Shown: one piece after another, positions 15,011-53,986 of the stretch
Layout of the letters: every line of letters starts with the position of its first letter
Numbering within the stretch: position 1 is the first letter of the stretch
DNA from: Escherichia coli
Lineage (GTDB): Bacteria > Pseudomonadota > Gammaproteobacteria > Enterobacterales > Enterobacteriaceae
DNA length: 64,000 bases
NCBI RefSeq assembly: GCF_017348835.2
Contig: NZ_CP071375.1
Reading direction: 5' to 3' (one strand)
Translations under genes and position numbers: made by a program
Notes under the pieces: generated by a model
Seen by the model: the letters and a program-made list of their open reading frames with translations, nothing else
Database searches by the model: none
What the model was told of the DNA's origin: nothing

Positions 15011-15087
15011 GCGCCCTTAGCTCAGTTGGATAGAGCAACGACCTTCTAAGTCGTGGGCCGCAGGTTCGAATCCTGCAGGGCGCGCCA
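15011..15087 (+). tRNA. argU: tRNA-Arg (anticodon UCU)
   Basis: 77-nt sequence gcgcccttagctcagttggatagagcaacgaccttctaagtcgtgggccgcaggttcgaatcctgcagggcgcgcca with TCT anticodon and GTTCGAATC T-loop. Confidence 0.95.
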
Positions 15088-15102: not shown

Positions 15103-16265
15103 TTACGCCTTCTTTATATCCTCCATAATTCCACAGTGGGACATATTTGGGACATGATCACCAAAAATGTCGTCTATTTTCCTTGCATGCTCTGTCAAAT
15201 GATTAGGCGCAAGGTGAGCATACCTACGAACCATTTCTATGGACTCCCATCCGCCCATTTCCTGAAGCACAGATAATGGGACGCCTGACTGGATCAGCCA
15301 GCTTGCCCAGGTGTGTCTGAGGTCATGGAAACGGAAATCTTCAATTCCTGCACGACGACAAGCTGATAGCCATGATGTCTTGCTGTCGATGCGCATCTTC
15401 CTGACCGCAGGCGTTGATGTTCCATCTGCTCGCTTAGCCGCCTTGGTATGTACAAACACCCATTTGTGATGCTTGCCTATTTGATCACGCAACACTTTAC
15501 AGGCGGTATCGTTCAGCGCCACACCAATGGCGCGGTTTGATTTGCTCTCTTCTGGATTCACCCAGGCAACTCGTCGCTGCATGTCGATTTGTTGCCATTC
15601 CAGATTTATGATGTTCGACTTTCTCAGACCAGTTGCCAGCGCAAACTTGACGACAGATTTCAGTGGTTCGGGGCACTCATCAATAAGGCGTTTTGCTTCC
15701 TCCTTTTCCAGCCATCTGACTCGCTTGTTTCTGACCGCTGGTATCTTGATGACAGGCGCTTTTTCCAGCCACTTCCAGTCGCGTTCTGCAGCACGGAGAA
15801 TGGCCTTTATCATGGCAAGATGCTTTGCCTTTGTCTGAGTTGATACTGGCTTTGGTTCATAAACAGGCGGTTCTTTACCTTTCCTGATGGCGGCCTGAAC
15901 TTTCTGTTTCCATATTTCTTTCGTCTTTCTGTTATGCATTCTGCTTACAGCAGAGTAAATCTTTGCCTCCGAGATATCTTTAAGCCTTATACCCTCAAAA
16001 TGTTCAAGCCAGAACTCAATCCGGCTTTTATCTGAATCGAGAGATTTTTATCAGCTTTTTCCTCAAGCCATCTTAGGCAGGCCTCTTCAAAAGTGACATC
16101 AGGTAAATCCCCTAGCTTTTCTACTCGCCAGAGTTCTGCTTTTCGCTTGTCGTGCAACTCCTGAGCTTGCCGCTTGTCCTTTGTGCCAAGAGATTCCTTA
16201 ATTCGTTTCCCGCCCGGGAGCGAATACGAGGCATACCATATTTCATTTCTGCGGAAGAGTGACAT
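15103..16265 (-). pseudogene. int: tyrosine integrase disrupted by a 1-nt frameshift
   Basis: N-terminal ORF (16265 to 15987) and catalytic C-terminal ORF (15939 to 15103, with R..HxxR..Y motifs) are in different frames; C-terminal frame is open upstream to a TAA at 16048-16050; frames meet at T5 homopolymer 16045-16049. Confidence 0.8.
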
Positions 16266-26298: not shown

Positions 26299-26682
26299 AT
26301 GCGTGATATTCAGATGGTTCTTGAGCGTTGGGGAGCGTGGGCGGCTAATAATCATGAAGATGTGACTTGGTCGTCCATTGCCGCCGGTTTTAAGGGATTA
26401 ATTCCTTCAAAAGTAAAATCTCGCCCACAATGTTGTGACGATGACGCGATGATCATTTGCGGGTGCATGGCCCGTCTGAAAAAGAACAACAGCGACTTGC
26501 ACGATTTATTAGTAGATTATTATGTAGTCGGTATGACATTCATGTCACTGGCAGGTAAGCATTGCTGCTCTGATGGTTATATCGGGAAAAGGTTACAGAA
26601 GGCTGAGGGCATAATTGAAGGGATGTTAATGGCATTAGATATCCGGTTAGAGATGGATATCGTTGTTAATAACTCTAATTAA
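26299..26682 (+). CDS. quuD: late-gene antiterminator Q (DLP12 quuD-like)
   Basis: 127-aa product from ATG 26299 ([22 protein letters not shown]...); position before the lysis cassette. Confidence 0.75.
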
Positions 26683-26715: not shown

Positions 26716-26733
26716 GGGGCGTTGCAACGCCCC
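26716..26733. terminator. 18-bp perfect palindrome hairpin between Q and nmpC
   Basis: ggggcgttg/caacgcccc; T-rich tract on the minus-strand side. Confidence 0.4.
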
Positions 26734-26870: not shown

Positions 26871-27953
26871 TTAGAACTGGTAAACCATACCTACAGCAAC
26901 GATATCATCGGTAGCAACGCCAGATGCTTTCGTGAAATCGCTCTTATCAATCAGGTTGATTTTGTAATCAACAAAAGTGGACATATTTTTGTTGAAGTAA
27001 TAGGTTGCACCTACATCAATATATTCAACCAGGTCCTGATCACCCCACGCACCCAAGTCTTTTCCTTTAGATTGCAGGTAAGCAACGGACGGACGCAGAC
27101 CGAAGTCGAACTGATATTGTGCAACTACTTCGAAGTTTTGTGCTTTGTTGGCAATATGGTTATTACCAAAAACAGTCATGTTCTGGGTTTCAGAATAGGT
27201 GGTAGCCAGATAGATGTTGTTCGCATCATATTTCAGACCAGCTGCCCATACTTCAGCATTTTGACCAGATGCATTCAGGCTGTTGTTACCGTAGATAACC
27301 TGATTATTAGTGCGGTCAGATTTAGCATAGGTTGCACCTACACCGAATCCTTCATACTCATACGTAGTGGAGAAACCGAAACCATCACCATTAGCTTCAG
27401 TTACGTCAGTGCGGTCATTTTTACCCTGATACTGAGCAGCAAAGTTCAGACCATCAACCAGACCAAAGAAGTCGTTGTTACGATAAGTTGCAACACCAGT
27501 GGTGCGACCAGTCATGAACACATCTGTTTGGGTCCAGGTATCGCCACCGAATTCTGGCAGAACGTCAGTCCACGCACCGATGTCATATGCTACACCGTAG
27601 TTACGGCCGTAATCGATTGAGCCGTAGTCCCCGAATTTCAGGCCTGCAAATGCAAGACGGGTTTTGTCTTTGGAGGAGCCTTGAGATTCAGCGCGGTTGC
27701 CTTTGAATTCATATTCCCACTGACCGAAACCAGTCAGTTGATCGTTGATTTGGGTTTCACCTTTGAAGCCAAGACGGGCATAAGTAGTATCACCATCATC
27801 TGCATCATTAGAGGAGAAGTAGTGCTTGGCATTAACTTTCCCATATAGATCCAGCTTGTTACTGTCTTTATTATAAATTTCAGCTGCCTGAGCAGACATC
27901 GCCATCAGTACTGATGCGGCTACAGCAGAAATTGCCACTGTTAATTTTTTCAT
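26871..27953 (-). CDS. nmpC: outer membrane general porin (NmpC/OmpD-like), intact
   Basis: 360-aa 16-strand porin with signal peptide and C-terminal ...VGMVYQF. Confidence 0.9.
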
Positions 27954-28541
27954 CGTGAGCCCTTTTTTTTGAACTATTATTAAAAAATGATGTCACTGCG
28001 CGATAAATATTCATCTAATCAATGTGATTATTTCAAGATGTAAGTTTTAGTTTCTCATTTAATTTGTGAGGTAGATCTCTATTTTTATCTGAACTTTTTC
28101 TATCGAAACCTATTTATGGCTCTTATTTGAACAAAAATAAACCTATTAGCTAATTTATATTAATGGCTGTTATTTATGGAGGTTCTATAATTCGGCGGTT
28201 TAATTTAAATCAACTAAAAATAACGGCGGAAATTATTTGTAGGATATTTGTTGAGGTTTTCTTATGTATTTGTGGTGGTGTTTTGAACACTCGGTAGCAT
28301 TCTCATAAATATCATTCAGTGGTTTACGTACGTAAAAAATTGGTTATGCTGTTAAGAGTGGTTACTTCGTCACACAGCTTAAACCCGCCGTCGAGCTGGT
28401 TTTTCCATTTTTTGAGTCTCGATATTAGCTGATAACTCAATACCTGAGTTATTCACTGACTCCGAGTCTGTTACGTTTCTGCTTTTTTGCGATACGTTGT
28501 ATTCCCTCAATTTACACCCGCTTTGTCTGCGAGGTGGGGTT

Positions 28542-28757
28542 ATGAAATCCATGGATAAGTTAACAACGGGTGTCGCCTATGGCACCTCAGCAGGTAGTGC
28601 CGGTTACTGGTTTTTACAGCTGCTCGATAAAGTTACGCCCTCACAGTGGGCAGCAATAGGTGTGCTGGGTAGCCTGGTATTTGGCCTGCTGACGTACCTG
28701 ACAAACCTTTATTTCAAGATTAAAGAAGATAAGCGCAAGGCTGCGAGAGGTGAATAA
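28542..28757 (+). CDS. essD: pinholin (phage 21 S-like) with dual start
   Basis: 71-aa with MKSMDK dual-start motif (ATG 28542 and 28551), RBS gaggtgggg, two TM segments. Confidence 0.85.
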
Positions 28758-29254
28758 TGCCTCCATCATTACGAAAAGCCGTTGCTGCTGCTATTGGTGG
28801 CGGAGCAATTGCTATAGCATCAGTGTTAATCACTGGCCCAAGTGGTAACGATGGTCTGGAAGGTGTCAGCTACATACCATACAAAGATATTGTTGGTGTA
28901 TGGACTGTATGTCACGGGCATACAGGAAAAGACATCATGCTCGGTAAAACGTATACCAAAGCAGAATGCAAAGCACTCTTGAATAAAGACCTTGCCACTG
29001 TCGCCAGACAAATTAACCCGTACATCGAAGTCGATATACCGGAAACAACGCGCGGCGCTCTTTACTCATTCGTTTACAACGTGGGTGCTGGCAATTTCAG
29101 AACATCGACGCTTCTTCGCAAAATAAACCAGGGCGATATCAAAGGCGCATGTGATCAGCTACGTCGCTGGACATACGCTGGCGGTAAGCAATGGAAAGGC
29201 CTGATGACTCGCCGTGAGATTGAGCGTGAAATCTGTTTGTGGGGTCAGCAATGA
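28757..29254 (+). CDS. rrrD: SAR endolysin (lysozyme)
   Basis: 165-aa; N-terminal signal-anchor-release segment, T4-lysozyme-like catalytic region. Confidence 0.85.
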
Positions 29255-29712
29255 ACAGAGTAACCGCGATTATCTCCGCTCTGGTTATCTGCATCATCGT
29301 CTGCCTGTCATGGGCTGTTAATCATTACCGTGATAACGCCATTACCTACAAAGCCCAGCGCGACAAAAATGCCAGAGAACTGAAGCTGGCGAACGCCACC
29401 ATTACTGACATGCAGCAGCGCCAGCGTGATGTTGCTGCACTGGATGAAAAATACACGAAGGAGTTAGCTAATGCGAAAGCTGAAAATGATGCTCTGCGTG
29501 ATGATGTTGCCGCTGGTCGTCGTCGGTTGCACATCAAAGCAGTCTGTCAGTCAGTGCGTGAAGCCACCACCGCCTCCGGCGTGGATAATGCAGCCTCCCC
29601 CCGACTGGCAGACACCGCTGAACGGGATTATTTCACCCTCAGAGAGAGGCTGATCACTATGCAAAAACAACTGGAAGGAACCCAGAAGTATATTAATGAG
29701 CAGTGCAGATAG
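29251..29712 (+). CDS. rzpD: spanin inner-membrane subunit (Rz)
   Basis: 153-aa from ATG 29251 overlapping the endolysin stop; N-terminal TM plus coiled-coil. Confidence 0.8.
29471..29653 (+). CDS. rzoD: spanin outer-membrane lipoprotein (Rz1) embedded in Rz in +1 frame
   Basis: 60-aa with lipobox (LVVVGC) and Pro-rich segment, wholly inside Rz. Confidence 0.75.
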
Positions 29713-29743: not shown

Positions 29744-30037
29744 TTATTGTGAGCAATACACACGCGCTTCCAGCGGAGTATAAATGCCTAAAGTAATAAA
29801 ACCGAGCAATCCATTTACGAATGTTTGCTGGGTTTCTGTTTTAACAACATTTTCTGCGCCGCCACAAATTTTGGCTGCATCAACAGTTTTCTCCTGTCCA
29901 ATTCCCGAAACGAAGAAGTGATGGGTGATGGTTTCCTTTGGTGTTACTGCTGTCGGTTTGTTTCCAACAGTAAACGTCTGTTGAGCACATCCTGTAATAA
30001 GCATTGCCAGAGCGGCAGAAAACAACATTTTTTTCAT
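29744..30037 (-). CDS. bor: Bor lipoprotein
   Basis: 97-aa from ATG 30035-30037 (MKKMLFSAALAMLITGC lipobox). Confidence 0.85.
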   Translation of the reverse strand: MKKMLFSAALAMLITGCAQQTFTVGNKPTAVTPKETITHHFFVSGIGQEKTVDAAKICGGAENVVKTETQQTFVNGLLGFITLGIYTPLEARVYCSQ

Positions 30038-30793: not shown

Positions 30794-30805
30794 GGGCGGC
30801 GACCT
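30794..30805. other. cosN cohesive-end site
   Basis: ...ccgacaggttacg | GGGCGGCGACCT cgcgggttttcgctatttatgaaaattttccgg matches the lambda genome ends as recalled; terminase genes follow. Confidence 0.85.
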
Positions 30806-30982: not shown

Positions 30983-31502
30983 ATGGAAGTCAACAAAAAG
31001 CAGCTGGCTGACATTTTCGGCGCGAGTATCCGTACCATTCAGAACTGGCAGGAGCAGGGAATGCCCGTTCTGCGGGGTGGTGGCAAGGGTAATGAAGTGC
31101 TTTATGACTCTGCCGCCGCCATAAAATGGTATGCCGAAAGGGATGCTGAAATTGAGAACGAAAAGCTGCGCCGGGAAGTTGAAGAACTGCGGCAGGCCAG
31201 CGAGACAGATCTCCAGCCAGGGACTATTGAGTACGAACGCCATCGACTTACGCGTGCGCAGGCCGACGCACAGGAGCTGAAAAATGCCAGAGACTCCGCT
31301 GAAGTGGTGGAAACCGCATTCTGTACTTTCGTGCTGTCGCGGATCGCAGGTGAAATTGCCAGTATTCTCGACGGGATCCCCCTGTCGGTGCAGCGGCGTT
31401 TTCCGGAACTGGAAAACCGACATGTTGATTTCCTGAAACGGGATATCATCAAAGCCATGAACAAAGCAGCCGCGCTGGATGAACTGATACCGGGGTTGCT
31501 GA

Positions 31503-31528
<26 letters not shown>
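30983..31528 (+). CDS. nu1: terminase small subunit (Nu1)
   Basis: 181-aa, near-identical to lambda Nu1 as recalled. Confidence 0.9.
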
Positions 31529-53402: not shown

Positions 53403-53986
53403 TGGCATTCAGAATGAGTGAACAAGCACGGACCATAAAAATTTATAATCTGCTGGCCGGAACTAATGAATTTATTGGTGAAGGTGATGCATATATTCCG
53501 CCTCATACAGGTCTGCCAGCAAACAGTACCGATATTGCACCACCAGATATTCCTGCTGGCTTTGTGGCTGTTTTCAACAGTGATGAGGCATCGTGGCATC
53601 TCGTTGAAGACCATCTGGGTAAAACGGTTTATGACGTAGCGTCAGGGGACGAGTTATTTATTTCTGAACTCGGTCCGTTACCGGAAAATGTTACCTGGTT
53701 ATCGCCGGAAGGGGAGTTTCAGAAGTGGAACGGCACAGCCTGGGTGAAAGATGCAGAAGCAGAAAAACTGTTCCGGATCCGAGAGGCGGAAGAAATAAAA
53801 AACAGCCTGATGCAGGTAGCCAGTGAGCATATTGCGCCACTTCAGGATGCTGTAGATCTGGAAATCGCAACGGAGGAAGAAACCTCATTGTTGGAAGCCT
53901 GGAAAAAGTATCGGGTGTTGCTGAACCGTGTTGATACATCAACTGCACCTGATATTGAGTGGCCTACGAATCCTGTCAGGGAGTAA
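53402..53986 (+). CDS. tfa: tail fibre assembly protein (Tfa)
   Basis: 194-aa, start overlaps the stf stop. Confidence 0.85.

Follow-up and report, generated by a model that had tools for sequence, protein, structure and literature searches.

The locus at positions 28542 to 29712 of the window, by which we mean the whole 64,000-nucleotide stretch of Escherichia coli DNA analysed here, is almost certainly the lysis cassette from the late operon of a lambdoid prophage, as judged from a gene set that corresponds to S-R-Rz-Rz1 of phage 21 and to essD-rrrD-rzpD-rzoD of E. coli K-12. The cassette is real and had been correctly interpreted in an earlier note on this DNA, and it belongs to a system already known in detail from phage 21 and from the K-12 prophage DLP12. 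The additions made by the current analysis are small: S contains a mosaic junction at its 3' end, and the best RefSeq matches leave the Rz1 gene unannotated.

Organization of the lysis cassette

The four genes are read from the plus strand and follow each other with minimal overlaps at start and stop codons. The S gene, an essD allele, holds the frame of the S71 antiholin, or anti-pinholin (28542..28757; 71 aa; PF04971), which begins at ATG 28542, and within it the frame of the S68 pinholin (28551..28757; 68 aa), which begins at a second in-frame ATG corresponding to Met4. The S stop codon TAA (28755-28757), identified in the open reading frame list and in the raw sequence, shares one base with the start ATG of R at 28757 (TAATG). 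R, the rrrD gene encoding a SAR endolysin of the GH24 or T4-type lysozyme class (28757..29254; 165 aa; PF00959), terminates with TGA at 29252-29254, and the start ATG of Rz at 29251 overlaps this stop codon as ATGA. Rz, the rzpD gene of the i-spanin (29251..29712; 153 aa; PF03245; phrog_13), carries in its +1 frame rzoD, the gene of the Rz1 o-spanin lipoprotein (29471..29653; 60 aa; PF06085), with ATG at 29471 and the stop codon at 29651-29653. The open reading frames of S, R, Rz and Rz1 are thus found at exactly the positions at which the earlier note had placed them. Ahead of each start lies a purine-rich motif resembling a Shine-Dalgarno sequence, namely GAGGTGGGG for S, GAGAGGTG for R, GGGG for Rz and AAGGAG for Rz1.

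All four products match curated Pfam families with E-values between 3e-20 and 5e-54, far over the curated cut-offs, and the PHROGs families matched are those of holin, endolysin and Rz-like spanin. Against NCBIfam, none of the four proteins scored above the curated cut-offs, and S and Rz1 were without any match; we ascribe this result to the content of that library and do not count it against the assignment. Rfam and tRNA scans returned nothing within the cassette or adjoining it, and a consensus scan for promoters and terminators gave fewer promoter-like sites than were obtained in shuffled sequences and nothing informative near S.

The dual-start pinholin gene

The S protein is matched by the Pfam family 'Bacteriophage P21 holin S' (PF04971) with an E-value of 2e-35 and 121 bits (cut-off 26), across profile positions 1-63 of 64. 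The dual start recognized beforehand in the N-terminal sequence MKSMDK is borne out, in that the ATG codons at 28542 and 28551 (ATG AAA TCC ATG, encoding MKSM) lie in the same frame and correspond to the starts annotated in phages 21 and 434. Lys2 is placed between the two starts and endows S71 with an extra positive charge over S68. Dual-start antiholins (S107/S71) and the pathway that involves pinholin and SAR endolysin have been described (PMC9636201, PMC9239132).

Hydrophobicity and motif checks on S, R, Rz and Rz1 were done with our own scripts, using a threshold of KD19 >= 1.0 for transmembrane segments. In S, the second transmembrane domain (TMD2, residues 36-54; KD 1.72) is strongly hydrophobic, and G40, S44 and G48 can be read directly from the sequence; these residues presumably constitute the motif with a functional role in TMD2 of S21. 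Together with MKSMDK they are common to S and to S21 of phage 21. The first transmembrane domain (TMD1, about residues 10-28) is weakly hydrophobic (KD 0.68; 53% Gly/Ala/Ser/Thr). Only one segment of S passes the threshold, and we considered S as a one-TMD protein; this candidate was rejected, since S21 exhibits the same hydrophobicity profile with a TMD1 that is weaker still (KD 0.45). A TMD1 below the threshold is a known property of the releasable, SAR-like type of this segment.

Comparison with phage 21 reveals S as the most diverged member of the cassette, with 61 of 71 residues (86%) and 164 of 216 nucleotides (76%) identical in pairwise alignment. The codon differences between S and S21 comprise 34 synonymous and 10 non-synonymous changes; the allele belongs to the S21 family and, though diverged, is maintained by purifying selection. 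The 10 substitutions include W27L in TMD1 as well as L47F and F49L in TMD2, so that lysis timing could differ from that of phage 21. From the 86% identity to S21 and the identity to EssD, we infer that S would form small holes which collapse the proton motive force (PMF) and release a SAR endolysin, as opposed to holes that let a cytoplasmic endolysin pass. RNA folding at the dual start, evaluated in the intervals 28505-28580 and 28520-28565 and in the equivalent phage 21 intervals, was not better than in shuffled sequences (z from -1.2 to +0.2), and the idea that RNA structure sets the ratio of S71 to S68 is therefore unsupported.

The SAR endolysin

R is matched by the phage lysozyme family PF00959 with an E-value of 2.8e-45, and 163 of its 165 residues are identical to RrrD as represented in PDB entry 4ZPU, and likewise to entry 3HDE. 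The 3HDE chain (165 residues) and R of phage 21 (OL657228) differ from R at the same two residues, and 3HDE and 3HDF are the structures of R21. The catalytic triad is present as E35-X8-D44-X5-T50, in agreement with the motif E-X8-D-X5-T given in PMC9239132. The hydrophobicity scan delineates residues 8-26, encoded by codons at 28778..28834 on the plus strand, as the sole hydrophobic segment of R (KD mean 2.11; 63% Gly/Ala/Ser/Thr), with R6 and K7 before it. The differences between R and R21 are confined to residues 91 and 98, from which it follows that the signal-anchor-release (SAR) segment, which the earlier note had already proposed at the N-terminus, is identical to that of R21. Release of R from the membrane and its activation upon depolarization may be inferred from the 163/165 identity shared with R21 and RrrD.

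Rz and the embedded Rz1

Rz is matched by PF03245 with 182 bits (E 5e-54) and by phrog_13, the Rz-like spanin, with an E-value of 2e-79, and it exhibits an N-terminal transmembrane domain at residues 4-22 (KD 2.63). Rz1 is located wholly within Rz, in a different frame as had been claimed, at an offset of 220 nt from the Rz start that places it in the +1 frame. It spans Rz from 0.48 L to 0.87 L, where L is the length of Rz, and embedded Rz1 genes typically start at 0.4-0.5 L (Kongari et al., PMC6139136). The protein is recognized by PF06085, the Rz1 lipoprotein precursor family, with an E-value of 2.9e-20. Its lipobox VVGC, with Cys20 as its cysteine, Thr (hence no Asp, as suits sorting to the outer membrane) at position +2, and three Lys or Arg among the first seven residues, passes a PROSITE-type pattern, which answers the formal lipobox check that the earlier note had called for; it also fits the consensus [LVI][ASTVI][GAS]C described in PMC6139136 together with the embedded +1 architecture of Rz1. 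Mature Rz1 contains 10 Pro in 41 residues. Cysteines are found at positions 14, 18, 99 and 152 of Rz and at positions 9, 20 and 29 of Rz1; for the lambda proteins, intermolecular disulfides involving C99 and C152 of Rz and C29 of Rz1 are attributed to Berry et al. in PMC6139136. With the SAR segment of R, the transmembrane domain of Rz, the strong TMD2 of S and an S TMD1 that is weak in the manner of S21, the membrane segments on which the lysis assignment had been made to depend are in place.

Annotation of Rz1 is uneven. The PGAP pipeline leaves Rz1 out of the 100%-identical RefSeq locus of E. coli PE164 and out of all 20 best E. coli matches; K-12 MG1655 and the curated records of phages 21 and 434 do list the gene. 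Gene callers are biased against embedded genes (PMC6139136), and the missing Rz1 annotation matches this bias.

Across 39 distinct Rz alleles, variable sites account for 29% of the 5' part, 6.6% of the Rz1 overlap and 8.5% of the 3' tail. Low variability in the overlap was considered as a sign of dual coding. The numbers are compatible with it, but we do not use it as such, for the 3' end of Rz, outside the overlap, is just as conserved and the effect is inseparable from recombination mosaicism.

Relationship to phages 21, 434 and lambda

The record of phage 21 (OL657228) displays the same architecture, lengths and start/stop overlaps, with antiholin S71, holin S68, SAR endolysin, i-spanin and o-spanin annotated. 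Downstream of S the correspondence is close: pairwise identities amount to 163/165 residues and 485/498 nucleotides for R, 147/153 residues and 449/462 nucleotides for Rz, and 60/60 residues and 183/183 nucleotides for Rz1. Description of the cassette as phage-21-type, which the earlier note had proposed to examine by alignment, therefore holds for R, Rz and Rz1 (97-100% nucleotide identity) and needs qualification for S, which is the EssD allele of DLP12 and shows 86% amino acid and 76% nucleotide identity to S21. BLAST homology to phage 21 extends from 28541, one base before the S start, to 30328. Along this interval, the first 180 nt of S are about 74% identical; at about 28722 the identity jumps to 92-100%, a level that continues across R, Rz, Rz1 and bor, and this jump indicates that the 3' end of S contains a mosaic junction. 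A second patch of divergence from phage 21 occurs at 29382-29441 (50 of 60 positions identical), just upstream of the Rz1 start. The sequence preceding S is also different: phage 21 has pR' and the genes of tRNA-Asn and tRNA-Thr upstream of S, whereas the window has an antisense porin gene and lacks these tRNA genes.

Phage 434 (OL657227) is 96.1% identical in nucleotide sequence across the full 1.4 kb of the cassette region. It is annotated with antiholin, holin class II, SAR endolysin, i-spanin and o-spanin, and it features an nmpC-type porin gene upstream and iss/bor downstream; the porin gene carries an IS5 insertion in the sequenced isolate of 434, unlike the intact porin gene of the window. 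Lambda shares with the window the family and the embedded +1 architecture of Rz/Rz1, as well as bor and the lambda-type cos and Nu1 further downstream, but its holin is of the canonical type with three TMDs (S105/S107) and its R is a transglycosylase of the cytoplasm, in place of a pinholin and a SAR lysozyme.

Prophage context and comparison with K-12 DLP12

The cassette is part of a full-length lambdoid prophage that resembles DLP12, measures about 40 kb (approximately 15090-55100) and is located at argU, the gene of tRNA-Arg(UCU) at 15011-15087. The order from the start is split integrase, regulators, replication genes, rusA, quuD, antisense porin and S-R-Rz/Rz1, followed by bor/iss, ylcI, cosN, terminase, head, tail and tail fibre genes, and thereafter by ompT and envY. 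The whole window is collinear with positions 3563492-3627491 of the PE164 chromosome (reverse strand), with 6 mismatches in 64 kb. The integrase gene intD (15103-16265, minus strand) is split into open reading frames of 278 aa and 92 aa and is annotated in PE164 as 'frameshifted; internal stop', suggesting that the prophage may be unable to excise; the lysis genes are unaffected.

An intact porin gene on the minus strand (26871-27953; 360 aa; PF00267, E 3e-153; named OmpC by PGAP) separates S from quuD (26299-26682), the gene of the Q antiterminator. With the porin in antisense orientation at this place, late transcription must read through the porin gene. A perfect GC-rich palindromic hairpin, GGGGCGTTGCAACGCCCC, is situated at 26716-26733, in the interval that separates quuD from the porin gene's 3' end, with A-runs on both sides in the plus strand. 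The hairpin looks like the terminator of the porin gene, and it is possibly a bidirectional terminator lying in the path of the late transcript.

Directly 3' of Rz is the bor/iss lipoprotein gene (29744-30037, minus strand; PF06291 Lambda_Bor, E 6e-31; lipobox LITGC), annotated in PE164 as 'increased serum survival lipoprotein Iss', which is a neighbour of the lysis cassette and stands outside its mechanism. The lambda-type cosN site GGGCGGCGACCT is found at 30794-30805, about 1.1 kb downstream of Rz, and is succeeded by the Nu1-like small terminase gene at 30983-31528. Two further features were noted elsewhere in the window. A full-length Rfam match to the IS009 RNA family (225 bits) occurs at 53745-53943, within the region of the tail-fibre-assembly gene, and envY (58216-59965 region) is interrupted at about 58216-59429 by an IS3-family element that contains an ALIL frameshift pseudoknot at 59007-59123 (Rfam, 120 bits).

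The essD-rrrD(ybcS)-rzpD/rzoD genes of DLP12 in K-12 occupy the same argU site and share the gene order of quuD, porin, S, R, Rz/Rz1, bor, ylcI and nohD/Nu1. At the protein level, identities to K-12 are 71/71 for S (EssD), 163/165 for R (RrrD), 143/153 for Rz (RzpD) and 59/60 for Rz1 (RzoD). Several differences set the two prophages apart. K-12 DLP12 has lost the complete terminase, head, tail and tail-fibre genes that the full-length prophage of the window retains; nmpC of K-12 is broken by IS5, whereas the porin gene of the window is intact; and ybcV and ybcW of K-12 DLP12 are absent from the window prophage. The start codon of K-12 RzpD is GTG, and K-12 RzoD carries P34R. A literature search for DLP12 jointly with essD and rrrD found no paper.

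Prevalence and related loci

A 1.4 kb region that encompasses the cassette is 100% identical to the chromosome of E. coli PE164, where it is annotated as essD-rrrD-rzpD. Matches to this region were obtained in 5217 of 5426 complete E. coli genomes, with 2193 of them covering >=80% of the query, and in 568 phage records, the best of which were lambdoid ev207, PhiR34_1, Turner and 434 (96-98.6% identity). To compare relatives at the level of gene arrangement, viral contigs (IMG/VR loci) were scanned with Rz, which gave 80 loci with Rz proteins 91-99% identical in amino acid sequence. All 80 have an intact Rz1 at the 220-nt offset and in the +1 frame seen here, with the lipobox Cys conserved. An S21-type holin and an R21-type endolysin are positioned upstream of Rz in 48 of the 80 loci. 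The sequence ATG-AAA-TCN-ATG is kept in 46 of these 48 S21-type alleles, some of them diverged by about 24% at the nucleotide level; the other two are a 5'-disrupted allele and a distant variant. Considering the Pfam E-values, the retention of Rz1 in 80/80 loci and that of the dual start in 46/48 alleles, the features of the cassette lie far beyond what chance produces.

The remaining loci mostly (about 28 of 80) have a lambda-R-like enzyme of 158 aa and, where a holin was found, a different one; a single locus has a SAR endolysin of 177 aa. The same Rz/Rz1 module is thus coupled to at least three endolysin types (R21 SAR lysozyme, lambda-R-like 158-aa enzyme, 177-aa SAR endolysin), and this variation beside Rz/Rz1 reflects the modular exchange of lysis genes that is well known from lambdoid phages.

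Proposed mechanism and alternative interpretations

The mechanism proposed for the cassette is based on near-identity to characterized proteins (PMC9636201, PMC9239132, PMC6139136). The phage 21 work of the Young laboratory is a further basis. Lysis would be prepared by a Q-dependent promoter downstream of quuD, from which the late transcript would be driven through the antisense porin gene into S. Translation of S would proceed from two starts, Met4 giving the S68 pinholin and Met1 giving S71, in which the extra Lys2 would delay the exit of TMD1 from the membrane and so confer the antiholin function. S68 would accumulate in the inner membrane, and its weakly hydrophobic TMD1 would leave the bilayer; TMD2, through the face made up of G40, S44 and G48, would then oligomerize into pinholes of nanometre scale, with collapse of the PMF at a programmed time. 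R is expected to be exported by Sec and to be held inactive in the inner membrane, tethered by its SAR segment, until depolarization frees it to refold into the active lysozyme (E35/D44/T50) that would degrade the murein. In the final step, Rz of the inner membrane and Rz1, the outer-membrane lipoprotein, would form a complex that spans the periplasm and, after loss of the murein, disrupts the outer membrane. Nothing in the sequence speaks against reading the locus as a lysis cassette.

A different role would fall to the cassette if it were a domesticated remnant that has ceased to serve phage release and that the host retains for turnover of its cell wall or for control of biofilms or vesicles; such a role has been proposed for the lysis module of K-12 DLP12. 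The location at the DLP12 site argU together with the split integrase is consistent with this proposal, as are an S protein identical to K-12 EssD in 71 of 71 residues and a presence in most E. coli genomes (the 5217 of 5426 given above). The SRRz/Rz1 operon of DLP12 is moreover reported to be conserved and transcribed, to confer a lytic phenotype from a plasmid and to modulate the production of outer membrane vesicles (PMC7918800). Unlike K-12 DLP12, however, the prophage described here is complete in its regulatory, replication, terminase, head, tail and tail-fibre genes and in cos, and with such a gene set the simplest role of the cassette is still phage lysis. A role in the host would, besides, rely on these very proteins with unchanged biochemistry and is not truly a rival mechanism. 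On balance, we consider domestication unlikely. Similarly doubtful, and put forward with comparable reserve, is the idea that the EssD-type S might be a functionally distinct pinholin timing allele and the full-length argU prophage a progenitor, still viable, of the cryptic DLP12.

One might also ask if the embedded Rz1 reading frame and the second start codon of S arose by chance and are not expressed, given that PGAP omits Rz1 from the identical PE164 locus and from the 20 best E. coli matches, and that an open frame of 60 codons inside a gene is not very rare. We give this interpretation practically no credence. Lack of annotation is the expected outcome of the known gene-caller bias (PMC6139136), and a spurious frame would hardly combine the PF06085 match of 2.9e-20 with a canonical lipobox and an AAGGAG Shine-Dalgarno sequence of its own, nor would it remain intact in 80 of 80 loci. 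Rz1 is, furthermore, 100% identical to the genetically proven Rz1 of the phage 21 and lambda type (PMC6139136), and the dual start of S has been retained in 46 of 48 alleles despite a nucleotide divergence of about 24%. The phage lysis cassette, with S71/S68, R, Rz and Rz1 as its products, accordingly stands as the preferred reading.

Significance

Beyond correct annotation, the locus has little significance of its own: it represents a textbook system, found in most E. coli and already characterized genetically as well as structurally. Two aspects deserve mention all the same. The embedded Rz1 gene (rzoD) is still under-reported by automated annotation. Lastly, the locus shows a full-length version of the cryptic DLP12 prophage of K-12, and as such it may help studies of prophage decay.
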